A stretch of 64,000 nt of DNA from Bispira polyomma (Eukaryota): contig OZ287755.1 of the NCBI GenBank assembly GCA_965649765.1, positions 7,192,001 to 7,256,000 on the forward strand, given 5' to 3'. This document shows positions 4,843 through 61,268 of this stretch, one piece after another (position 1 is the first letter of the stretch; the number at the start of each line of letters is the position of its first letter). Made by a program: the position numbers and the translations under genes. Under the pieces are notes generated by a model. That model was given only the letters and a program-made list of their open reading frames with translations. It was not told where the DNA came from and made no database searches.

Positions 4843-6786
4843 AATTTTAACCATTATTTAACAAATTGTTTATCTGTACATAGTACTAATATGTATATAA
4901 ATAAAAGCTCAAACTGAATCTTCTTACTGACTTACAAAACTTTTAGACTGATCTTTATACCTGTATAACTTAAGTGGACTGTGCACAGCAGTCCCCTTTA
5001 GGAGACTGATAGTTCAGTCCACACACCACTCTATGTTATTGCACAACCTTAATTTCGGCTACACCATAGCTATATGTAGCTATACCTCTTGTATACTAAG
5101 CACTAACCAATCAAATCACATACACTTGCTGTTTATGCTTCTCTTATTAAAACTCCATTTTGAATTTTCATTGAAGTCACAGATTTCAAACGAAACACAA
5201 GTGGAAAATAAAATATATTTTACAACCCACCGCCTCCCCTTAACCACAGCTTCTTGCTAGACCAGTATTCAGCAACAGAGGTTGGCATGTTAATTACATT
5301 CACTCTCAATTAATGGTTTAAGAACAGGATAGTAATTTACAGACTACTACAGCGGAAGGCTTGAGCGGAAGGCAGATTTGAACCAGCGGCCATGTGAGTA
5401 GCGATTCTGTCACTTATGCCTCCCCTGGGTCATACAATGCTTCGCCAGGAGGGGGTATGACCGGCAGAATTTACCCTTTGCTAGGCGGCAGGTGCCCTAG
5501 GCTGTTGGTTCCTAATCTTAGCCTGAAGCTCGAATGCTCATAAGATTGTTTAAAGTTGTAATGTGGTCATTATAACGTTTGTCTTCAACATTACTATAAT
5601 AAAGTATAAACTCATTCACAGAATGAGAGTATACAGAGTATATGGAAATTTCAAGAGTGTTAGAACTTCAAATGTGTTAGAAATAATCACAAGATTGGCT
5701 GTGAATAGGTTCTATATGTAAAAAATATGAACGAAGAGGAAAACACGGTTTATGAATAAAACATGCTCTATACAAGGTTTATGACGAAATTATTCTTTTA
5801 CATGTAACTTTTGTTATTTTAATTCTATGACTTGAACGTAACAAGAATGTTTTAGTATATTATGATATTAGTTAGTTAGTGCATTGATTATTGACTAGTC
5901 CTTTTTTGTATTGGTTATATGTATTATTGTTATGGCTAGTCCTTTGTTATGAAAGGGCAGACAAATACCATTTTACTCCATTTGTGTAGAAATAACACCT
6001 CACGTTTTATTTCAGATGGGACATCAATGTGCCATATAGCAAATGAGTGGAAAGATCAGCTTGATACAAACCATTGTTTTTTTATCAGAAGAATTATCCA
6101 AGCGAACAAAAAACATTCCAAGAACATGTCAAGTAATACATTAAGAGGAATTGTGTGAATCAAAAAATATATCTTTACCCATTGTGATTTCTGATGAAAT
6201 AGCAGTAGTGATAACAATGTGTTTGCTCACACATTGTATTGTGATATGGTTGTAGGTTGTTAACAGAAACAAAATAAGTATATGCTCACTTTTTCTGCCT
6301 TTTGTGATATATATTTACCTCCACTAAGAGTTTTAAATTTACGTATGTTTTGCCCTCTTCTACTAGTTAGATGGATTAAAAGTTTTATTTGTCGCTTGTA
6401 ATGAACACAAAAACTGCTAAACTGATTAACTTTAATCTGGTGGAGTCATGGGCCTATGGGCCTTAAAAGAGTCCATTTTAGTGTATCCAATTGACAAGGT
6501 GGATCCAGGAAATAAGTTTGTTCAATTTTGGACACTGAGGTACCTTGACAGAGGTATTCAGTCGACTTAGAATTGAGATACGGTTTACATCACTTTCAAC
6601 ATCTTAGGTCATATCACGACTGTGGAAGACACCAGAGCTGGGATTTCTAACCCACGTATTGATGAGAGGCCAGTGATTATAAAGCTAGCACCTCTGACCA
6701 ACTAGGCAAAACTGGCACCTGTTCCAAGAAATAATCAACCTACTTACCCCACAGTGCTACAATTCTTGGAATGCTTTAAAATACAT

Positions 6787-28500: not shown

Positions 28501-29614
28501 TGCTGTTTTTTGTCAAATGAATGTGATATTGGGTTTTGTTATTTACATTTAAGTCCCTCCCCCAATGGACCTTGCTCCAGGAAGAAGGTGACGGGGGAGG
28601 GGTAACTATGACATTGACACAGGTTGATCAGACAATCCCTGTACTCTTTAGTATCCAAGGTCGAGCTGCCAATTAAAAAAAATCTGACATTTTTCTTTTG
28701 AATCCTATAGTTTTGGGGGGCCATAAAAGCAAGGAATATCAAACATTAATATTCGTTTGGCACTTTCGTTTAACACAGTATCTAAATAATCGTTAATTCT
28801 TAGTATAAATCATCAAATAGGGTTTTTCTGAATGACTTCCTATGCTAGTTTCTTCAGTTATATTTTAAACTAGTATTACCCCGTTTCATGCAGTGTAAGG
28901 TATTTCATATCATATCATAACTTCACTAAAAGCATTCAGAGTTATACACGTAGTCTTTCAATTGAAGGTTATTCATTTTTGCTGTATAGAGAATTCATTT
29001 TCTCCTTGACATCTTTAATGCTAAAGAAGGAACCAGGTCTAGTTTTATTTCTCTTTTTCTAGATGACTTAAGGAATTACATGGGCTTTTAGACAGGTTTA
29101 CCCCAAGACGTTCATTGAATGGTAGAAACAATAAATACCTAGAATTTTTGATTGATTGCCAAATAAGGGATGGTGGCCCCGATTTTTTTCCTCGCCAAGA
29201 AATGGTACCTCTTGGGATTGCAAATAATTGAAGGGGAAATAGGCAGAAATAATAAAGTTTAGTGATTTACTGTTTTATTATATAATGTCAGTGTGTGAGG
29301 TGTGGTAAACAAATAAATAATGCCAAACAAGGAATGTTAGCACAGTGTTTTTTCCAGATTTTGGAGTAACCTTAACATTATAAATATTTAGGGCATAATT
29401 TGTTTCCAGGAATTTGTTTCATTTTTTGCCACTGTGCAACTTTGGTAGAGGTATATACTCTACTGATGAACAGATCTAGTGTCAAAACAATGTCCAAAGC
29501 ATCCACAGAGATATTGTATTTGTCAACATGGACAATATCAGTAGTAATAGTGTAGTAATGAATTTTATTATCCTCTTTTATCCAATATTCCACAGAACAA
29601 CAGCAAAGGTTGTA

Positions 29615-29842: not shown

Positions 29843-32063
29843 TCAATGTCTTTAACGCACCCATCTATCTTTCGGTATAATCCTTACATAGAAATTATAT
29901 TATACAAAGTAGCAACTTAGTCACTTTATCTTTTTTTTGCACAAGTGGATAAATCTTTGCAGATAAACACAAGAATAGGCTTATATATAAGAGTTTATTA
30001 TTAAATGAATACACACTAAACTTTAGCCTTTACAAAATCAGCTTGAGTTTCTACAGTAAAAGCTAAACAACTAAAGTTCTGGTTCCCCTTAAGTGACAAC
30101 CATAAGTACGTCCCTAATTCGAGATTTAGCAATTCTTATGAAAAAAGCTTTATCAAATATAAAGTCTGGGTTTTTAACTAAAAAATTCAGGACAAGCTCC
30201 TTAAAGGATTATAACCCTGGGGAGTTTTAGCCCAATTTTTTTCCTTCAAACTCTTAGTTGACAAAAAAATTTAATAGCTTGGTAGCCAATCCTGGCTGCA
30301 GATCGACTATTTCATAACAAGATGCAAATGTGTAACTGTCTAGACTTGCTCTAATTTTTTACCGTAAAGTACATATTTACTGCCGAACTTGTGATTTCTA
30401 GTATATTTTTACTTTAAAAAAATCATGAAATATGTAAAATGCCATGTCACCATTATAATAATCGATACTATAGTCTACACTATTAATCAATCAATTAATT
30501 CATCTACAGCAAATAACAGTTATTGGATAAGCTATGTTACTTTAACATTGCTTTTAATGCACTTGTGTTATGTTGCAAAAGCCATGAGAAATAAATAAAG
30601 CAAAAAGTAACAACTTGTCCCCCAAGGTCCATCCCTCCACCAAAGGTCATGTAAGTGGGTCTGGTATTGTTTGGTGTCTGATCCTGGTGACAAAAACAAC
30701 TAACACACATGTGGTGCAGGTCATTAATGGAATTAAATGAAGCAATATCTTGTTGAATTTTTAGAGAACTGTGATTTCCTCCATTCCAGATATTACTCAT
30801 CGTGATTTGACACGAATGTCGTAAAACTGAAAATAAAATAAAGCCAACTTAAAGCTAACCAAAATATATAAGCCTCTCTGGTAAGTACTTCAAGTCACTG
30901 TTAGTAGTTGTTCACACACAGAGAGCTAGAGCTGACAATAGTTAATCTTTTCCTTACTATGATTATGGTTTTGTTTCTTTCAGTGGACAGTAGCCATTAG
31001 CACATAACACTAAGGAGTCTGTTGGAGATAATAAACCATTCATGTACTGGCCAAACACTGTATAAATATTGCTGGGCTTGAGTGGGAGGGGTTGGTTAAT
31101 CGTAGGGTCGCTTGTGGCCTTTGCTAGGTTATTTCGCCAATTAATGTGCTTTTACAAAGTATCCAAGGTCAAGCAGCCAATTAAAAAAAATTCTGCCCTT
31201 TTTACTTTGAATCCTATAGTTGCACATAGTCTTTGAGGGCGACAAAAGCAAGCAATGTTAAACATCAATATTTGTTTAGCACTTTCAGTATACACAGTAT
31301 ATACTTTCTGTTCAATACAAAGAATACTGTATCTAAATAATCGTTAATTTTTAGTATAAATTATCAAATAGGGTTTCTCTTAATGACTTTCTATGCTAGT
31401 TTCTATCAGTTATATAATAAACTAGTATTAACCTATTTCATGCAGTGTAAGATATTTGATATCATATTATAACTTTACTTAAAGCATCCAGAGTTATACA
31501 TGTAGTTTTTCAATGGAAGGTTATTCATTTTGCGGGGTAGCGCCGTAGGGGATAGCAAGTTCAGTGCTACTAGTATTTTCCTCCTTGGGTTCATGCCCTT
31601 TAAACCCTCTCCTAATTGGTTATTTGTGTACTAATTAACCTCTGTTTTCCCGCTTTTTAGCTAGAATCCTCACTTACACTTTTGAAGTCATGTAGGCAAC
31701 AACGCCATCTTTAATATTTTACATTATTTTACTTTTATGTGTTTTATTTTTACTTCACTGATTTTATTATCTGTGTGATGGAAACAAGAAATGCAACAAA
31801 TGATTCACTAAGTGGTGCTACACACTAAGGAGGAACTGATCTGCAGTGCTTGTGCTGGATTCCTGTGTTTTACTCTACTTTGAGTCTTGCGATTATATGC
31901 TCGTTTGAGCGGTGGTAAAGGAACGTGGTCAAATCAATTATATTGCATCAAATTCACGGCTATTTGCCTGATTACATATAATTCAATTCAGATTATCGCG
32001 TTACAGTTCCTTTAGTATAGTTGCAGGTATCAAAGCCACGAGTTCTTATATTATTCAGAGGCT

Positions 32064-33038
32064 ATGGCCCCAAGGAAACAATATTTCTGTCACAAGTGTG
32101 AAACTTATCATGTTAAGCCCATTGATGACAACTGTAAAATGCATACCGGTGTGGGAACCTCCCAGCAGAACTCTGTGACTGGCGATGGTGTAACTGCTGC
32201 CGACGTTAATCTACAAATTTTGACTGAACTCAAAGCATTAAGTGGGCGTATGACCCAAGTTGAGCAGCAAGTTTATCGCAGTTCACATGGAGCCCAGGCT
32301 TTGACGGCGTCGAGCCCGGGGAGTGCAGCCCAACCTAGACAGGCGGACCAAACCACTTCTGAGCTACTGGTCCCGACGCTACACACACTACGTACATCCG
32401 ACTCCCTACAGACTGCAGTGGATTCACGTCTTAAGGAATTGGTGGCCATTAACGAGTCAGGTACGTCAAAATCTCAAAGAGGGGGTCCCGACACTCTGTG
32501 GGTGAAGAATAAGGTGGCTTGGCCTCAGAACGTTATACTAGGGGGACAAAACAAAACACGAGTTACGTATGACGCGTTGTCAATGGCCCAGTGGGTCTCT
32601 GGTTTTGCCAGTATAGCTAGAGATGAAAGTAATTTAGACGTTAAAAACCAAATGTTGGAGTATCTCACTGACCTCATGGAGGACGCTCATGACTTTTCCT
32701 GGACTTCGGCTAAGGCTAGCCATGCCGTTGTACTCTGTAAAATGGAAGAGGGTAAGGTAACCTGGGGAGATGCCCACAAGTTGGACAGGATTAGACGGGC
32801 TCATGCCCAAAGGGTTGTCATCCAGACTGCAAGTAGTAATTATCAAACCAACACCAGGAAAAGTCATGAGAAGTCCATCCCATGTAGGTACTTCCAGAGG
32901 GGTACTTGCCCCCAAAAAGGGGATCACGAATTCAAAGGTGTGTCATATAGTCATGTGTGTAACCAATGCTTTCAAAATGGGAGGTCTTACCCCCACCCTG
33001 CAAAAGACTGTAAAAAATATCCGTTAAAAAACGAGTAA
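32064..33038 (+). CDS. El3 Gag-like ORF1 (324 aa)
   Basis: Intact ORF. N-terminal CHKCETYH..C; C-terminal CRYFQRGTC..H..HVCNQC..H..C. Confidence 0.9.
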   Translation: MAPRKQYFCHKCETYHVKPIDDNCKMHTGVGTSQQNSVTGDGVTAADVNLQILTELKALSGRMTQVEQQVYRSSHGAQALTASSPGSAAQPRQADQTTSELLVPTLHTLRTSDSLQTAVDSRLKELVAINESGTSKSQRGGPDTLWVKNKVAWPQNVILGGQNKTRVTYDALSMAQWVSGFASIARDESNLDVKNQMLEYLTDLMEDAHDFSWTSAKASHAVVLCKMEEGKVTWGDAHKLDRIRRAHAQRVVIQTASSNYQTNTRKSHEKSIPCRYFQRGTCPQKGDHEFKGVSYSHVCNQCFQNGRSYPHPAKDCKKYPLKNE

Positions 33039-35442
33039 GGCACTGCAGTGATGCAGTGCCACCCCATGTTTCTTCCACACAAGAGGTGGTCAGAAAAAAA
33101 CTTGCACAAAAAGTTGTAAATATTTCTAAAGGTTGTCCCACTAGAACTGTGTATAATAGTTTTAAATGTATTACTGGCAGTACACATTGGAGGGCAGATT
33201 GGGCCAAATTTGTAAATAGATCTTATGCTGATGTGGTTAAAAGAAAGGCTCCCTCCAGGTCTGCTGCCATAAAGTTTTCTGTACAAAGTGCGAATGTGAC
33301 TCAGAGGTGGCAAAGTCACCACGTTAAATGTTCACCATGTTTAAATAACAACCAAATTTCAGAGGTGTCCACAAAGCATGAACGGGGCCACAGAGTGAGT
33401 GTTAAAACTTTCACAAAAGGTGCTTCCCCTTTCACAAGTGTACAGAGGCATAATGTAATGTCAAAAATGGGTAAACCCCCTCCAACAAAAGGTGATCAAT
33501 TTGGCCAAAAGCTGGAAATCACAAAATTAGACATTCAGGGCAAATGGCCCATTTCCACTCACAATAGGTTTTCCCCGTTGAGTGACAATGACCATTATAT
33601 GCACACTAGTGACAACTCTGTCACACATTTACCAGATACTTGTAACCAAGGTCAAGGTTTTAAAATACTCTCTCGAGGTACTGGGGGAATAAAATCAGAC
33701 AAATATGACCTAGAGCTACAAACTAAATCGAAAAACAGGGAACTTATAAAACATGCTTCCAACCAGCCTCAGTTCCAGCAATGGGATACTCAAACTACAG
33801 ATAAGTATGGGTTTATTCCGCTAAATGACCTCCGAGTTCCCCAAATGGATAAACGAGTAAAGTCGGATAAGTCTCTGTTAGAATTACACACTCAGATTAA
33901 GAAGGACAACTACCCAAATTATATGGGGGCACAAGTTCAATTGAATACTGGGATAAACAACTCCCTTTTTTGATAAGATATGGGTTTCCCCTCGATTTTA
34001 ATCCTGACAGCAAGTTATCTCATACAGAACAGAATCATTCATCTGCAACACAATTTCCAGATGATGTGCATGCTTATTTAAAAGAAGAGACTGAGTTAGG
34101 CGCCATGTTGGGCCCTTTCCATAAGGCCCCCATAAAAAACCTCCATATTTCTCCCTTCATGACTAGGGAAAAACCAGGTGCCGCACACAGGCACAATCAT
34201 AGATTTAAGCTTTCCTCATGGCAACTCTGTGAATTCGGCTGTAGTCAAGGATAAGTATCTCGGTACTGCGTTTGCATTAACCCTTCCCACAATTGACACA
34301 ATTACAAACAAAATCTGTCGCATGGGACGTGGAACGCTCCTATATAAAATTGACGTAAGTCGGGCATTTCGTCACGTCAAAATGGATCCAGCTGATTACA
34401 ATCTATTAGGCTTAAAATTAGACAAATACTATGTCGACTCTTGCCTCCCATTTGGTTTTCGGCACGGGAGCGCAATTTTTCAGCGATTAAGTGACGCCGT
34501 CAGGTACATCATGAAACGTTACGGACATGACGTCACCAATTATATCGACGACGTAATCGGCTATGGTGACGTCATAGAAAGTAAACGTTCATTTGATATA
34601 TTGCTAAACTTACTCCAGGAACTAGGCTTTGCGATTAGTCACAAAAAACTTGTGCACCCCAGCACGTCAGTAACGTGTCTGGGGGTGTTAGTTAATACAA
34701 ATGACTTGACAATCTCATTGCCAGATGAAAAGCTACTAGAAATAAACACACTTGTGCAAGACTGGCAATTAAGAAACTGCTGCAGTAAGAGGGAGTTGCA
34801 GTCACTGCTAGGTAAATTGTTATATGTATCCAAATGTGTTCGAGTTTCACGTGCTTTCTTAAACCGAATGCTTGACGTCCTAAGATCTGTAGGCTCGGAT
34901 CAAAAAGTAAAACTCACACCTGAGTTTCATCAGGATGTAAATTGGTTTAAAAAATTTTTACCAACATTTAATGGAAAAGCCTTCTTTGAACACAAACCCA
35001 CTACCGATTGTATTCAGTTGGATGCGGGCCTCCAGGGGCTGGGAGGTCGTTGTAATGATGAAGTATACCAATTCCAAATTCCTCTAGGCTACCTAGATTT
35101 CACGATAGTTCATCTGGAAATGTTAAACATCCTAGTTGCCATTAGGCTATGGAAGTCAGCGTGGGCAGGTAAGAGGCTAATATTGCAATGCGACAATGCT
35201 GCCGTGGTCACTATCCTAAATTCAGGCAAAACTAAAGACCTCACTTTGGCAGCTATTGCCAGAAACATCTTCATGGCCGTAGCCTCCCATGACATCAGTC
35301 TCAAAACCATTCACATTTTAGGTAGACTTAATACAGTGGCAGATCACGGGCCAGTAATAATGACAAGTTACTACAACTGGTATCGAATCCCAAATGGGTA
35401 AAAGTAAAAGACACAATGTTAGAAATAGATTGGTCTATCTAA
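33026..35442 (+). pseudogene. El3 pol (linker + RT + RNase H), -1 frame; three frame-disrupting lesions (~33965, ~34190, ~35345)
   Basis: ORFs 33056-33973, 33970-34254 and 34178-35401 are consecutive parts of one RT/RH protein (YGFPLDF, LPFGFRHGS, YIDD, QLDA, HLEMLN, CDN). Confidence 0.9.
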
Positions 35443-35448
35443 TTGCAG

Positions 35449-36440
35449 ATGTACCTTCCAAGCTAAGAAAGATTGCTACACAAGCCTCATACAGAGCCCA
35501 TCAGGCCTTTAGACCAGCCACTGAAAGGGCCTATACAAATATGTTTAGGATATTCTTGGCCTATTGTAGTTTTGCTCAGGTCTGGCCTCAAAATATCTCC
35601 CCCCTTATTATATTGGCCTTCTTAGAAGTATTAGTGGTTAATCAGGTCTCTTCCCCCTCCATTGCAAACTACCTTTCGGCAGTTAAAGCTAAATTGGCCC
35701 TCTATGGCCTTGACGTCTCTGCATTTGCAGATCCTAGAATTAAGTATTACCAAAAAGCCCTTACACTCAATAGCCCCTTCAGGGCTAAAATTAACGCTAT
35801 TATTGACATTCCCCTCTTACTCCAAATTACTCAAATTTGTGACAGCATGTACATGGGGCAGATCTTCAAGGCTCTGTACCTCATTGCCTTCTTTTCTTTT
35901 CTTAGAATATCCAACTTACTTCCACATGTTGTCTCTCAATTCTCTCCACTTGTCCAATTGGCCCGGGGGGACGTACTTTTTGCCTCCCCTGGCCTCCACC
36001 TCATAATAAAGTGGTCTAAAACAATGCAGTCAAAGAATGTAGCAAAAGTTATTAAAATACCGAGCCTAAGTGGCTCTAGTCTCTGTCCGGTGGCTGCCAC
36101 AAGGGCCTTGCTGGCTATTACTCCTGGACACAAAAATTCTCCTCTCTTTCAGTTTAAAAAACACCATAAATGGTCTCCAATCATTGACACCCAAGCTAGG
36201 CAAAATCTCACCCAAATTTTGAGGCGTCTTGGCCTCCAGCAATCAAACATTTCTTTCCACACCTTCAGGCGTTCAGGTGCCACCTGGGCCTTCAACAATA
36301 ATGTCCCAATTCAAGATATCCAGAGCCATGGCACTTGGACGTCTGATTGTGTGTGGAAATATATTGTACAGGATCACAATGCATCTGACCAAGTCGCCCT
36401 CACCTTCAAGGCCCTCCTTGCCCCTTCTACTACTTCCTAG
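35449..36440 (+). CDS. El3 tyrosine recombinase, intact catalytic set (probably expressed as a spliced exon)
   Basis: FLR (Arg), IKWSKT (Lys), HTFRR (HxxR), HGTW, WKY (Tyr). Confidence 0.92.
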
Positions 36441-39400
36441 TTGGGCTTTGGGGCTTTATTTACATACATTATATACAAATAAAATATAATAATGCTTAAA
36501 TATAAATATTTTGGGGCCACCTTACCTTATACTAATTTAATCCTTTTACATCTTTACTAAATCTCTTTTGGCAACCTCAAATAAAATCTAAGGTTACCAT
36601 TTTTTCTTAAATTTAAACTCATTCTAAGGGTACCCTAACTTCAAGTTAGGGTACCCCTAAATTCAACCTTAAAAATTTCAATCTTTGGTAACCCTGACTT
36701 CCAAGTTGGGGCTACCCTTAACCTTAAACTCAATCTTAGGGAGCCCTAACTTTCAAGCTAGGGCTACCCCTTAAATTTTAAAAAATCCCTTTGGTCACTT
36801 TGGCCTGTTGTCCTCAGGCTAAGGTCACCTTAAACTCTTAACTTCTCCTAAACTCTTGGGGCTAAGGTGGCCCCTTACTACACAGTATGTAAATAATTAT
36901 TAGTGATAACATAGTAAAATTAAAGCTAATATCCCCAAAACCTACCTTTCTTGTTATTTTCCTGTGTTACACCACATATACAAGTTTACTTGGGTAGGGC
37001 ACTGTGCGGGGTAGCGCCGTAGGGGATAGCAAGTTCAGTGCTACTAGTATTTTCCTCCTTGGGTTCATGCCCTTTAAACCCTCTCCTAATTGGTTATTTG
37101 TGTACTAATTAACCTCTGTTTTCCCGCTTTTTAGCTAGAATCCTCACTTACACTTTTGAAGTCATGTAGACAACAACGCCATCTTTAATATTTTACATTA
37201 CCCACCCACTTGCCCCTCCTACTTCCTCGGTAGTTTTCAGCTATGCGTCCGTCCCTGGAGTGCTGCATGCAGTCCCTGGGGTTCCTGAAGTCTCACTTTA
37301 CACCTTGGCGCAGGGGGGTGGGGGCTCGGGGCTGTGGGCCCACGAGTTATGCATTACTGCTGGCCTTCACAGTTCCCCGCCCTTGGGGGCCTTCTGGGGC
37401 CTCAGGTGACTTATCTCCCATATTCTTCTGGGTAACACCAGGGCCCTTAGGGGCCAACACTTACTTGTAGGTAGCTGCTTGCTGCTGAGGTTGCGTCTCC
37501 TTTTGTTGTTATCAATTGTATGTTACTTTATTGTCTTCAGGGTGTTCCCTTTGTTGTATATCAAATTGATAATGTTGTCAAATGTCCTGCGTCAGGTAGC
37601 ACGATTTATACGTATATAGTATGTGAAGTCGCATCCTTTTTGTTCTTATAGTAGCATGTAAAGTATAACTAGTAATGTTGTTCCTCGTTACAACGAGGAC
37701 TGGATTTGTAAAATGTTTGTATTTCGCAACCTGGTGTGGTTGCTAGTATAACGTTACAATGCACTGCACATCATGTTGTGTGCAAGTGCATTTGGTAGCT
37801 TTGTGATCACATGTTGAACTGTAAGCATGTAGTTTCAGGCATACTGGATTGATGGATCTCTTGTGGCTCAGTCAGGAATGAACTCTATACAAGCAAGCAC
37901 TGCCCTCCTGGAAGACAAGAGCTACTCGATTTATATTTTGCTCATGTCTGTATGCATGTTCTCTGTAAGCCATGGTAATTGTATATGCTAGGGGTTTAAG
38001 GTCTAGTGAGTTTTTGCTACTCTCATGGACTTTATTAGTGAGCAGCACAGGTTTTAGTCTCTTAGCTAGTACCATGGTTTTTTTAACTTCGATTTTACCC
38101 TTTTTGGGGGCTTTATTTACATACATTATATACAAATAAAATATAATAATGCTTAAATATAAATATTTTGGGGCCACCTTACCTTATACTAATTTAATCC
38201 TTTTACATCTTTACTAAATCTCTTTTGGCAACCTCAAATAAAATCTAAGGTTACCATTTTTTCTTAAATTTAAACTCATTCTAAGGGTACCCTAACTTCA
38301 AGTTAGGGTACCCCTAAATTCAACCTTAAAAATTTCAATCTTTGGTAACCCTGACTTCCAAGTTGGGGCTACCCTTAACCTTAAACTCAATCTTAGGGAG
38401 CCCTAACTTTCAAGCTAGGGCTACCCCTTAAATTTTAAAAAATCTCTTTGGTCACTTTGGCCTGTTGTCCTCAGGCTAAGGTCACCTTAAACTCTTAACT
38501 TCTCCTAAACTCTTGGGGCTAAGGTGGCCCCTTACTACACAGTATGTAAATAATTATTAGTGATAACATAGTAAAATTAAAGCTAATATCCCCAAAACCT
38601 ACCTTTCTTGTTATTTTCCTGTGTTACACCACATATACAAGTTTACTTGGGTAGGGCACTGTGCTGCATAGAAAACTCATTTTCTACTTCACATCCTTAA
38701 TGCTAAAGAAGGACACATGTCTAGTTTTATTTCTCTTTTTCTAGATGAATTAAGGGATTACGTGGGCTTTTTGACAGTTTAACCCCAAGATGTTCATCAA
38801 ATGGTAGAAACAATAAATACCTCCAATTTTTGATTGATGGCCAAATAAGGGATGCTGGCCCAGATTGTTTTCGCTGTGAAGAAATGTGACCTCTTGGGAT
38901 TGTAAATGATTAAAAGGCAGAAATAAAAAAGTTTAGTGAGTTACTGTTTTATTATATAATGTCATTGTGTGTTGTGTGGTAAACAAATAAATAATGCCAA
39001 ACAAGGGATGTTGGCCCAAATTTGTTAACCAGATTTTGGAGTAACCTCAATATTATAAATATTTAGGGCATAATTTGTTTCCTGAAATTTGTTTTATTGG
39101 TTGTCGCTGTGTCACTTTGGTAGAGGTGTGTACTCTACTAATAAACACATCTAGTGTTAAAACAATGTCTAAAGTATCCGCATCTATATTGTATTTATCA
39201 ACATAAACAATAGTAGTAGTAATATCGTATATTTCAATCTCCTATTTTATCAACATTGCAAAGGTGGCCATCAAAGACTATATTTGCATTTCTATGGGTT
39301 TTAAGCCAGTTTCAACAGCTATGCTCATACTATGACGGCCAGGTTTTAGTAGTTGGAGAAAAAAGTTACTGAAGCACTGTAAACCACTGACCTACGACAA

Positions 39401-57180: not shown

Positions 57181-57920
57181 CATATGGTGTAAGTATTAAC
57201 TGGCAGCAATTTATCTTCAGTAGATATTGTACTGTGCTTATGACATTTATAGTAAAAAGCATTGCAAATATTGTGTCGCCAGAACAGTTAATGCTTTCTA
57301 GGCTACTAACACCAACAATTTAATCATCTGTGAGTAGCCATTGAAAATTATGTAAAATAATTGGTACATAATTATATCTCCTGCACCAGTGAACTAACTG
57401 CCCATTGTGATACAACACAAGACGTTCAATCCAAACTTAACAAACCTTACACCAAAATATTAGCCCCTCTGGCAGTTAAAAAGTCAACATGGGTAGTAAT
57501 TTACATACAAAGGAGGACATTTTTTTATCTCTTCTTCAATATTATTGTGGTTTTGTTTCTTCCACTGGACAGTGGCCATTAGCATATTACACTTAGGAGT
57601 CTGTTGGAGGCAATGGACCTTTTATGTACTGGCCAAACACTGTATAATGGTGTGTTGTGTTTGGTTAATCGTAGGGCGATATTATTGTGTTAAACAAGTG
57701 GACCCCGGATTGAATTTCTGGGTTATTGTACATCTCCATGAGCACGGGATGCGGCAAGCGGCTTGCGGCTGCGGCTTGCGGTTGCGGTATGCGGGTGCGG
57801 CAAGTCTGTTTCCATGTGTGCGGCTTGCGAGTACGGCTTGCGGCTGCGGCAAGTCTGTTTTCGTGTATGTAGGTATATAAGGAGCATTTTATTTGCTAAT
57901 AAACCTCTTTTCAAGTAAAA

Positions 57921-59597
57921 ATGGCACCTTCTATGTCAAAACTAGTTGCTTGTAATGATAAAATAACCAGAGATAAGCTATTGGTAGCTACACTATATAC
58001 TTTGTACTTAAAGAAGAAAAAATTCAACAAGAGAAAACATCGTTTTTGGGTGGATACTGTTTTGAAACTGAGAGAAACCTATGGTGCTTATCACCATTTA
58101 GTACAAGAACTCCACTTAAATGTAGAACATTTTAAGGCTTATTTTCGTATGTCTAAGTTACAATTTGAAAACCTGTTAATTGGACTTGAAGACGAACTGA
58201 GAAAAGAAAATTTAACAAGGAAATCTATATCACCTAGAGAGAGATTATGTCTGGCATTGAGGTATGTTTTTTGTGGTTACCTTAATAAATTATAAAGTAC
58301 TGAACAGTGTCTATCAAGAAAAATCTATAACAGTTGAATATATTTGCGACCTGAAAATACTTAAAAATATATATACTTAAAATGTACATCAGAAGTAAAT
58401 ATATATATTACTATTAATGTAAATGTGGTTGGTAAAATCCTATACTGATGCTATAACAATTATTTTAGAATGGAATTTACAGGTTGTTTTCTTCTGATAC
58501 TACTGATATCATTTGATTTTTAATTAATAAAATCTAAATACCATTTATATGATTTTCAAAGTTAGCATAGTCATAGCCCACTTTATACCGGCATTGTAAA
58601 CCACCGACCATCGACAAGTAACTTTCAACTTTTCCACTTAAGGCCTGGGTTGAGATTTAAACCTCAGAGGTGGGAGGTGGGTGTGTTACCGAGGTGATTT
58701 AGATATTCATAATTTCCCTTTTTTTATTACTTTTAGATTTTTGGCAACTGGAGAATCCTTTAGATCTCTGTCATTCAGCTTCCGAATTGGTATTGCAACT
58801 GTGGCGAGGATCATACCTGAAGTCTGTGATTTAATTTGGCATGTTTTTAAAGATCAGTATATTCCCATGCCTCAAACACAAGATCACTGGCGATTGTGAT
58901 GTTGTGATTAAGGCACCAGATAATACAGGATCGCAGCATTTCAATTATAAAGGGGCCTTCTCTGTGGTGCTACTGGCACTGGTTGATGCTCATTTGAAAT
59001 TCATATACATAGATACGGGTTCATATGGTCGAAACAGTGATGGGGGCATTTTTTCACACAGCAGCTTAGGAAAAGCATTGCATGGAAATAACTTGCACCT
59101 ACCACCTGACTGCCCAATGCCTGAGGCACCACAATTGGGACCAATGCCATATGTTATGGTAGCTGATGAAGCGTTTCCTCTTCATCATTTTTTTGAGGCC
59201 TTTCCCAGGAAAAAAATGTGGAGAAAAAGAACAACTGTTTAATTATCGTTTAAGTAGGACAAGGAGGATTGTGGAAAGCGCATTTGGAATCCTAGCGTCA
59301 AGGTGGAGAATTTATCACACCAAAATGGCTGTCAGTCCTGATACAGTAAACAAGATAGTTAAAAGTACTTGCCTGTTTCACAACATGATCCAGGCAACTA
59401 CAACTCCAGCAGAAATTACTACATTGTTAGAAAGTTCAGAAGGAGAAGCTGAAGGGTTGCAGGGGCTCATCAATATGGGTTACAGAGGTACACATGATGC
59501 TATTGACATTAGAAATAAATTTAAACAATACTTTGTTGATATTAACCCTCTTACATGGCAAAACGAACATGTTCGTCGTGGACTTTGTCAAGACTAA
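57921..59597 (+). pseudogene. Harbinger (HARBI1-like DDE_Tnp_4) transposase; exon 1 57921-58261, exon 2 58737-59597; defective
   Basis: FRMSK..F, ISPRERL.LALR|FLATGES (AG|gtatgt ... ttttag|A), NYKG.FS, GRNSDGG, VADEAFPL, FNYRLSRTRRIVESAFGIL..RWRI. A deletion at ~58897 removes the GAIDG catalytic motif, and there is a frameshift at ~59190. Confidence 0.9.
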
Positions 59598-59754
59598 ACA
59601 AAAACAAAACTTAAAAAATTCTGAAGTTTCAAATATTGAAACAATATTGGATAAGAAAGTATTTTGTATTTTGTATCGTCAATTGAAGGAAAAAAAATCA
59701 CTATCAATTGACGAATTGTATTGTCAATTGAAGAAATAAAAATCACTATCAACA

Positions 59755-61268
59755 TCAATGAAGAATAGTCTGCATGGCTTGAGCCAAGATGTCATTTGGA
59801 CTCAGGGTTTGCCATTGCTGATGATCTGTTCCTTGAGTCATGTGCCCTGCATCGGATGTTGCAGAAACAGCAGGTGCAGTAACAACAGGTGGGGTGACAA
59901 AATTGTTTGGTGGGTCTGGATATTCAGCCTTAAAAAAGAGGTTTGAAATTTCGCATTTCAACCAAGACCTGTTGTCTTGGTTGAAGCTTTTTCATCCTCA
60001 GAGCACATGACTCAAAGAAAAGATCATCTTCGTCTTTTCCATGGCATATAGAGACAAGGTTGTCACTATTGTTTTTAGAATCCGCCATAAATTCTATGAG
60101 GGCATTTGATAACAAGTCCTCCTCCTTGGCTTTTCTGGGCCTCTTCCCCTTCCCAGGTTTTCCAGGTGTTGCTCCAGGTGTTGCTTGTGGTTGTACTGGT
60201 CGTGACAGTGTTGTTGGCGGGGGGCTTGGTGATTTGGGTGACGGGGGGGGATTTGGGCATTCTGGTGAATACACAAGTCTGGTCTTCATCTTCATCCTCA
60301 ATGTCTTCCTCAACGCACTCCTGCTCACGTGCCGTTTATATTAATAGATGTATGACTTTGATCATTTTTACCATTTCTTTTTACACTAAATCAATTTACT
60401 TATTATGCACAGATGTTTGACGATAATTGTACACCAAATGTGTTGAATATCTCTTGCATTTCACTGGACATATTTATTGAGAAGAAATTAAAAAAAACTG
60501 ACTATGTAGGTAATAATATCTATACTATGGAATACCATGAGCAGTAAATAGTATCTAATAGACCTCAATGTTAATACTTCTATAGTGCCACAATCAATGA
60601 CCAGGCATCTTCTGTGCTGCACATCCAATTCAGCATGCAAAGGAATAGTCATCAGTATGAAAAGAATAGTCTAATCAGTATGCAAACTAATAGCCCAAAT
60701 AGAAAAAGGGTTTTTGATCAGAGTTGACTACATTTCTTGTAGGATATATCATGTAGCTATAGATAGGAACAAAAGTATGTTATACTTACTCAGCTTGTTG
60801 GGACAACAATTCAGAATCGGAATCCTCTAATGCCAGGTTACTCTCTGTGCTTAAATGACAGAAAACATTCACACAGTTCACTGAAAAGTTACACAATAGT
60901 AAGAGTTATAATTTTACATAATGTAGTACGTCTGAATAATAAAATTGATATATTGTTTTCTGTATTACATATGAAATACCTACTCCTTAGAAACATGCAT
61001 AATGTTTAAGCTGGACTCTGGAGAAAATTAAGACTTCACTGTAACCCATGTAACCCAAATTAACAACATATCAACATATATCGTACATAAATCATTATGT
61101 TATCATAATACCTAGCTTCCTCTAAGTAGCTGTCCAGGAATGACATCTGGCTAAAAAATACCCATTTGTTGGTCTTCTTAGCAGCCTGGCCACTTTTCGT
61201 TTTCATGATCTTTTTCTGCTTGAGGTAGCTGTCCCTTAAGTTACGCCACCTTTTCTTCAGCTCTACAC
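59755..61268 (-). pseudogene. Harbinger MADF (Myb/SANT-like)-BESS partner gene; exons 61112-61268, 60790-60849, ~59755-60330; first exon outside the window
   Basis: KKRWRNLRDSYLKQKK..KSGQAA..KWVFFSQMSFLD with canonical ag/gt boundaries. BESS-like DEDDLFFESCALRMKKL...KCEISNLFF, frameshifted. Confidence 0.85.

Follow-up and report, generated by a model that had tools for sequence, protein, structure and literature searches.

A four-box B|A junction at the crossover point of the Ngaro retrotransposon El3 from Bispira polyomma and its probable attC-like fold

Ngaro retrotransposons are described as elements with split direct repeats and gag-like, RT/RH and tyrosine recombinase (YR) genes that insert without target-site duplication and also occur as solo AB and shortened copies (PMC8547959, PMC6681497, PMC13465315); the available text of these three articles describes no structure at the B|A junction. 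In the published model for DIRS elements, a double-stranded circle recombines at a 3-bp sequence that is identical in the target (PMC3266345, PMC7192593), and the available part of one of these articles states that YR specificity in the DIRS order has not been studied experimentally (PMC7192593). A folded recombination site is described for integrons, whose attC sites comprise four boxes (R-L...L-R) that form an outer and an inner stem with a non-complementary central spacer and have low sequence conservation (PMC2727003). Cleavage of attC takes place beside the spacer, on the outer stem's 5' arm, with one crossover (PMC2727003, PMC3458562); one strand is exchanged and the product is resolved by replication (PMC3458562).

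Here we address the question of how the YRs of the DIRS order insert into targets with which they share almost no sequence. We analyzed a 64,000-nucleotide stretch of Bispira polyomma DNA (hereafter, the window) together with related elements of the host genome. The junction at 36998-37042 is the B|A junction of a Ngaro tyrosine-recombinase retrotransposon, El3, which is an ordinary Ngaro element with an exactly placed att site that is not loxP/dif-like.

El3 and its relatives in the host genome

The window contains three tyrosine-recombinase retrotransposons in states ranging from degraded to intact (El1, El2, and El3; Table 1). El3 has the A1-ORFs-B1-A2-B2 layout of split direct repeats, the gag-like, RT/RH, and YR genes, and the lack of target-site duplication of the Ngaro elements in the literature available to us, and its Pfam domains PF00078, PF13456, and PF00589 correspond to RT/RH and a tyrosine recombinase, as in Ngaro. 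A general Pfam scan of 13 ORFs reported no methyltransferase domain, whose absence separates Ngaro from DIRS1/PAT. El2 breaks off within its YR and has no 3' repeats (window 22546-22563), and El1 retains A2 and the start of X, with no B2 inside the window (5226-5500). Five further ORFs, each encoding 126-144 aa, lie at 57500-60340 close to short tandem repeats.

A YR search of the 1.04-Gb host genome yielded 9955 candidates at first look; 150 of these were scored. The locus sample consists of the closest relatives of three queries and is not a random draw; it comprises 40 El3-family loci and 120 further 9.9-kb loci, from which 2 of the 160 were left out as having no YR match. The remaining 158 loci define 23 related families of one genome, with YR identity to El3 ranging from about 39% to 100%, and motif-free self-alignment found abutting A and B in 66 of the 158 loci. 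Among the matches listed for contigs of three sequencing runs there was no joint across El3, and neither an empty allele nor a circle was seen.

The repeats show several further features. Repeat B of El3 includes an array of short palindromic units with a period of ~52 (36600-36860 and 38257-38520, by TRF). A C-rich, CCCACC-like tract follows A2 in 64/66 elements and A1 in 0/66 (window 37201-37220 and 5226-5245); it likewise follows A2 in the distant metagenome element L285 (about 5498-5515), and a G-rich tract often opens repeat B. B1 and A2 together are thus bounded like one LTR, and the two tracts are candidate primer or strand-transfer signals. The first B is the terminus in 61/145 copies (A-ORFs-B; loci L061-L280), the share being 7/40 in the clade whose B is short (150-240 nt) and 30/69 and 24/36 in those whose B is long (450-650 nt), a pattern consistent with B1 x B2 recombination or template switching. 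El3-family B-A-X units of 1656 bp form tandem arrays at G000:C2:3427794-3440648 (L003-L009, L096, and L097), where seven junctions follow one another, and at G000:C10:4728853-4732270. Solo A-X-B units of about 1.1-1.2 kb with both ends exact occur in the El1 family (L147, L149, L152, and L156), and several elements (L175, L177, L191, L272, and L274) lie inside tandem satellites with a unit of about 188-189 bp, which provide near-identical empty sites.

Table 1. Coordinates of El3, its junction boxes, and related features in the window
Feature	Position	Strand	Evidence or remark
El3, full-length Ngaro element	31531..38661	+	self-comparison, ORFs, Pfam, ends of family copies
El3 A1	31531-31726	+	
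El3 gag-like ORF	32016-33038	+	
El3 RT/RH	34163-35401	+	
El3 YR (tyrosine recombinase) ORF, open	35364..36440	+	PF00589, E 3e-6
El3 B1	36447-37004	+	
R1, 5' strand of predicted outer stem, last 7 nt of B1	36998..37004	+	right ends stop here
El3 A2	37005-37200	+	
S1, 7-nt spacer, first bases of A2, predicted largely unpaired	37005..37011	+	first base T in 23/23 families
L1, 5' strand of predicted inner stem	37012..37018	+	"right arm" of the original prediction; covaries with L2, not R1
Terminal loop of predicted hairpin	37019..37021	+	3-6 nt across families
L2, 3' strand of predicted inner stem	37022..37028	+	missed by the original prediction; pairing with L1
S2, second spacer	37029..37035	+	7 nt, 6 nt in El1 clade; last base T in 23/23 families
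R2, 3' strand of predicted outer stem	37036..37042	+	downstream motif of the original prediction; pairing with R1
El3 spacer X, 0.9 kb	37201-38103	+	
El3 B2	38104-38661	+	
El1 four-box junction	4974..5022	+	B1|A2 junction, crossover 4981/4982
El1 boxes	R1 4974-4981, S1 4982-4988, L1 4989-4996, L2 5001-5008, S2 5009-5014, R2 5015-5022	+	
El2 left end: S1, L1, L2, S2, R2 without R1	18304..18341	+	El2-family copies start at 18304
Host DNA upstream of El2, chance palindrome	18289..18303		upstream DNA is unrelated at other left ends of the El2 family
Empty paralogue (88% identical) of the host repeat hit by El3	28940..29020	+	extra T in T-run

Crossover point and target sites

The ends of element copies place the crossover at 37004/37005, between the end of B1 and the start of A2. 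In the El3 family (40 loci), 37/37 right ends stop after R1 and 34/34 left ends start with S1, one of the 34 being an internal junction with an indel. Over the 23 families, 148/156 right ends terminate in ACTG and 152/165 left ends retain at least 6 of the 7 spacer letters, after removal of calls at internal junctions (7 left, 2 right). The junction is therefore the att site of the element, as originally predicted, nearly every copy of the 23 families having its crossover at the base that follows the left arm. None of the 156 right ends carries 6-7 spacer letters, and a large second class of ends with its crossover beyond the spacer is absent; most of S1 is missing in 4/165 left ends (L119, L125, L130, and L196), which could reflect erosion or a second class of small size. 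A TGC shared by both ends looks true for El3, but varied host bases follow other right ends, and this candidate was rejected.

A paralogous empty site outside the window was found for 16/119 two-ended copies, and the gap is 0 in all 16, with repeat-caused ambiguity in three. Target-site duplication is 0 in 83/119 copies and never exceeds 4 nt. The empty paralogue inside the window is not decisive alone for precision, because of its one extra T. Insertion is thus blunt, with a single crossover point and a degenerate target.

Target preferences were counted at 153 left and 153 right clean ends. The target loosely resembles the left arm R1, with G at -7 in 49, A at -4 in 90, T at -2 in 106, and G at -1 in 45 of 153 sites; position -2 is A or T in 148/153, position +7 is A/T in 126/153, and position +8 is A in 69/153. 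In contrast to the DIRS model, as given in the available text, just 33/153 targets share even the first two spacer bases (TG at 0/+1; 5% expected). The whole spacer matches its targets at 1.86 of 7 positions versus 1.59 expected, an excess limited to these two bases; spacer positions 2-6 give 1.11 matches versus 1.09 expected, so that no shared 3-bp or 7-bp core is required. Complementarity of target positions 0/+1 to the returning hairpin strand was rejected, since G at +1 is enriched whatever stands opposite and A is not.

The junction before the ORFs is a host junction at 129 loci and an internal one at 1 only, inside a tandem array. A circle with two equal double-stranded junctions should give permuted copies, and the two junctions are therefore not equivalent at integration, which could be explained by a structure-dependent site or by an intermediate of another shape.

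Four-box anatomy and covariation

The junction has the same order of parts in 23/23 families: R1, a 7-nt S1, L1, a loop, L2, a 6-7 nt S2, and R2, with 30-34 nt from R1 to R2 throughout. The three strings on which the original prediction was based are present in the window, as are the arm-complementary motifs downstream of them (El3 37036-37042, El1 5015-5022, and El2 18335-18341). Those of El3 and El1 lie at true B1|A2 junctions, whereas that of El2 lies at a left end, the element starting at 18304; 15 of the 18 letters of this string are host DNA, and its "TGC spacer" and palindrome are due to chance; the true El2 B end was located in L107 and L278. The ACTGTGC thought to be common to all sites reduces to ACTG|T, which is invariant in 23/23 families, while the following letters vary. 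The downstream motif does covary with the left arm, but the GATAG said to precede it, which runs from the last part of the inner stem into the first part of S2, is not conserved across families.

R1 and R2 form 6/6 Watson-Crick pairs in 23/23 families. Five of these six pairs are invariant and hence uninformative for covariation; the pair at position -5 is G-C in 8, A-T in 8, and C-G in 7 families, and underwent at least 4 changes on the 21-family YR tree, none leaving it unpaired. Over the 23 families, own-family R1:R2 pairing is 6.26 versus 5.39 for swapped partners, a value reached in 0/20000 permutations. The covariation at -5 is poorly explained by protein read-out, because the corresponding target position matches its family weakly (40/153). 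Own-family L1:L2 pairing is 4.96 of 7 versus 3.84 swapped, again with 0/20000 permutations as high, and the first inner pair changed 5 times on the YR tree without being broken. Pairing in the inner stem is incomplete, at 3-6 of 7 when bulges are disallowed; some El1-clade families have bulges and El3-clade families have purine mismatches, and no such feature is universal. S1 and S2 are mostly non-complementary, with a mean of 1.6 Watson-Crick oppositions of 6-7 and a T.T opposition at the cut in 23/23 families. L2:R2 pairing is 4.04 in own families versus 3.86 swapped (permutation fraction 0.09). The two arms named in the original prediction, R1 and L1, do not co-vary as it had claimed: their pairing is 3.96 of 7 versus 3.97 swapped, with 64% of permutations as high and a range of 1-6.

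In 13 families, those with native junctions and a 7-nt S2, 92.9% of cells are paired, and covariation is 0.335 versus 0.129 in shuffled and at most 0.087 in slid controls, which ignore the relatedness of the families; two-sided changes affect 5/12 pairs, including 4/6 of the inner stem. For the 8 families whose S2 measures 6 nt, pairs were counted by script only, and the first two pairs decided the 6/7 register. A count on a 21-family MAFFT alignment (61.9% paired) was rejected, as the one-base difference in S2 between the two clades puts the inner stem out of register there.

Fold energies differ between elements. The El1 junction yields a two-stem hairpin with a z-score of -4.4 (0/200 shuffles as good), whereas shuffled sequences fold as well as the El3 and El2 junctions taken alone (z -1.3 and -0.1), and several minimum-energy folds adopt other registers of the inner stem. 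The better fold is on the sense strand in 21/21 native junctions, with 23 G.T versus 3 A.C oppositions; this bias fits an RNA fold equally and partly mirrors G-richness.

Related YRs were found in twelve metagenome loci, eleven of them at 35-41% identity. All five elements among them that have >500 nt after the YR (L281, L285, L286, L289, and L290) show the four-box layout 203-495 nt downstream of the YR, with different arm sequences. The layout rule is post hoc: the first rule picked out three sites, and the other two were recognized by eye before a relaxed rule, whose background is about 0.75 hits per kb, recovered them; all five sites are placed by layout. The circular-looking contigs L286 and L290 were rejected as evidence of circles, since assembly through repeat A yields the same picture.

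The El3 YR is open, and alignment shows its R/K/H-x-x-R/W/Y positions to be present and conserved. Its structural model (pLDDT 76) is closest to Cre (Z 15.6, rmsd 11.0, 275 aligned), followed by an archaeal Xer at Z 15.4, and IntI ranks 8th (Z 12.9, rmsd 11.4 over 246 residues). PDB sequence searches with the YR or a YR profile found nothing. IntI has a specific insertion that binds extrahelical bases. Judged from the model, the protein lends no support to integron-like specialization.

Proposed mechanism and alternative explanations

The alternative raised in the original prediction, an attC-like single-stranded fold using the downstream motif, is the idea that the comparative data support. 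We propose that the B|A junction is the donor site where Ngaro joins host DNA and is probably a folded, attC-like substrate of which the YR would cut one strand only; this reading is based on the family-matched complementarity of R1:R2 and L1:L2, the non-complementary spacers, and the one crossover beside the spacer. The sense strand would fold, as a free single strand or as a cruciform arm, into an outer stem, a 7/6-7 nt internal loop, and an inner stem, and two recombinase monomers would bind the two stems. The sense strand would be cut at the edge between the outer stem and the loop and swapped for one strand of a duplex host target with a loose resemblance to the outer arm, and the branched product would be resolved by replication or repair, without a second exchange.

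In canonical YR chemistry, the arm keeps a 3'-phosphotyrosine and the spacer carries a 5'-OH, the cut lying at the edge of the 5' arm and the spacer. On this basis the cut strand must be the sense strand, as an antisense fold would place the cut elsewhere. In DIRS-1, the extrachromosomal cDNA is antisense and mostly linear, according to the part of the source available (PMC7192593), so that for a sense cut a displaced plus strand or a cruciform must be assumed. This sense/antisense conflict is the main difficulty for the folded-donor reading. More tentatively, Ngaro elements across eukaryotes may use a Cre-like YR that reads the shape of the folded sense hairpin and makes one exchange into almost any host site, in which case the newly made junction alone would be used, being the only single-stranded one.

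Among other explanations, it is unlikely, though the least so, that the hairpin acts in RNA or reverse transcription (B1 poly(A) read-through, packaging, or strand transfer) while the YR recognizes a degenerate duplex core at this position. The G.T wobbles favor the sense strand, which is the RNA strand, weak two-sided target symmetry (T at -2, A at +8) would suit a double-stranded core, and AATAAA occurs 49-119 nt before the B end in 8/10 representatives, for which read-through into A2 must be allowed. However, the crossover at the outer-stem edge and the 7-nt gap to the second stem in 23/23 families are recombinase geometry with no RNA reason, TATA-like boxes at +68 to +90 of A (6/10 representatives) place the probable RNA ends at a distance from the hairpin, and Rfam gave no match near the gathering score for the junction hairpin.

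Still less likely, the four boxes would be double-stranded protein-binding sites, a core and an accessory pair, with one exchange on a double-stranded circle resolved by replication. A single exchange on double-stranded DNA also predicts one crossover point, L2 resembles R1 in the El1 clade (L2:R2 5-6 of 7), and the R1-R2 spacing of 30-34 bp is close to three helical turns. Against this, covariation is confined to the fold pattern (R1:R2 and L1:L2), unlike four copies of one motif, and the permuted copies expected from a two-junction circle contrast with the single locus with an internal junction.

The loxP/dif-like simple site of the original prediction, with inverted arms, a 7-bp overlap, and two strand exchanges, is very improbable: the El1 arms are 6/6 symmetric, T at -2 is mirrored by A at +8 in 22/23 families, and the YR model is most like Cre, but arm symmetry is otherwise variable and not family-matched, targets have no overlap identity, and two exchanges over a mismatched overlap predict about half of the ends in a far-side class that here holds no right end with 6-7 spacer letters and at most 4/165 left ends. 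This model is largely refuted, one crossover class dominating, though the scars are compatible with strongly biased repair.

The preferred reading, a folded donor with one strand exchange, shares with attC, as described in the sources available, outer-outer and inner-inner pairing, an unpaired spacer, and a crossover at the outer box beside the spacer. The Ngaro site differs in its length (about 45-50 nt versus 57-142, from the same sources), in the lack of universally placed extrahelical bases, in its target, which is dispersed host DNA, and in its ACTG|T core, which is not an attC R box and has no cassette/attI context; with such a core in a retrotransposon, it is only attC-like and not an attC site. 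Ngaro is moreover a eukaryotic retroelement whose YR fold is not closest to IntI, and single-strand use is proven for attC, whereas for Ngaro it is inferred. With loxP/Cre and dif/XerCD the junction shares the recombinase fold and a 7-nt spacing between symmetric elements, but it has no conserved arm symmetry or partner overlap identity and apparently undergoes one exchange. The folded attP of CTXphi is also a single-stranded donor with a single exchange and host resolution. CTXphi recombines at a single dif site through the XerCD of its host and requires microhomology in the overlap, whereas Ngaro has its own YR and many degenerate sites. We found no published description of a folded Ngaro junction; Goodwin and Poulter 2004, Poulter and Goodwin 2005, and Poulter and Butler 2015 may discuss junction symmetry.

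The four-box layout provides a structural rule for locating the exact ends of Ngaro elements, and the problem is reduced to a 45-nt oligo and one ORF, with compensatory mutations supplied by nature. A folded donor with one strand exchange, if true, would explain blunt insertion without overlap homology. It would then be a eukaryotic counterpart of attC recombination, carried out by a scarless, low-specificity integrase, and would carry site-specific recombination on folded DNA beyond bacteria into animal genomes.
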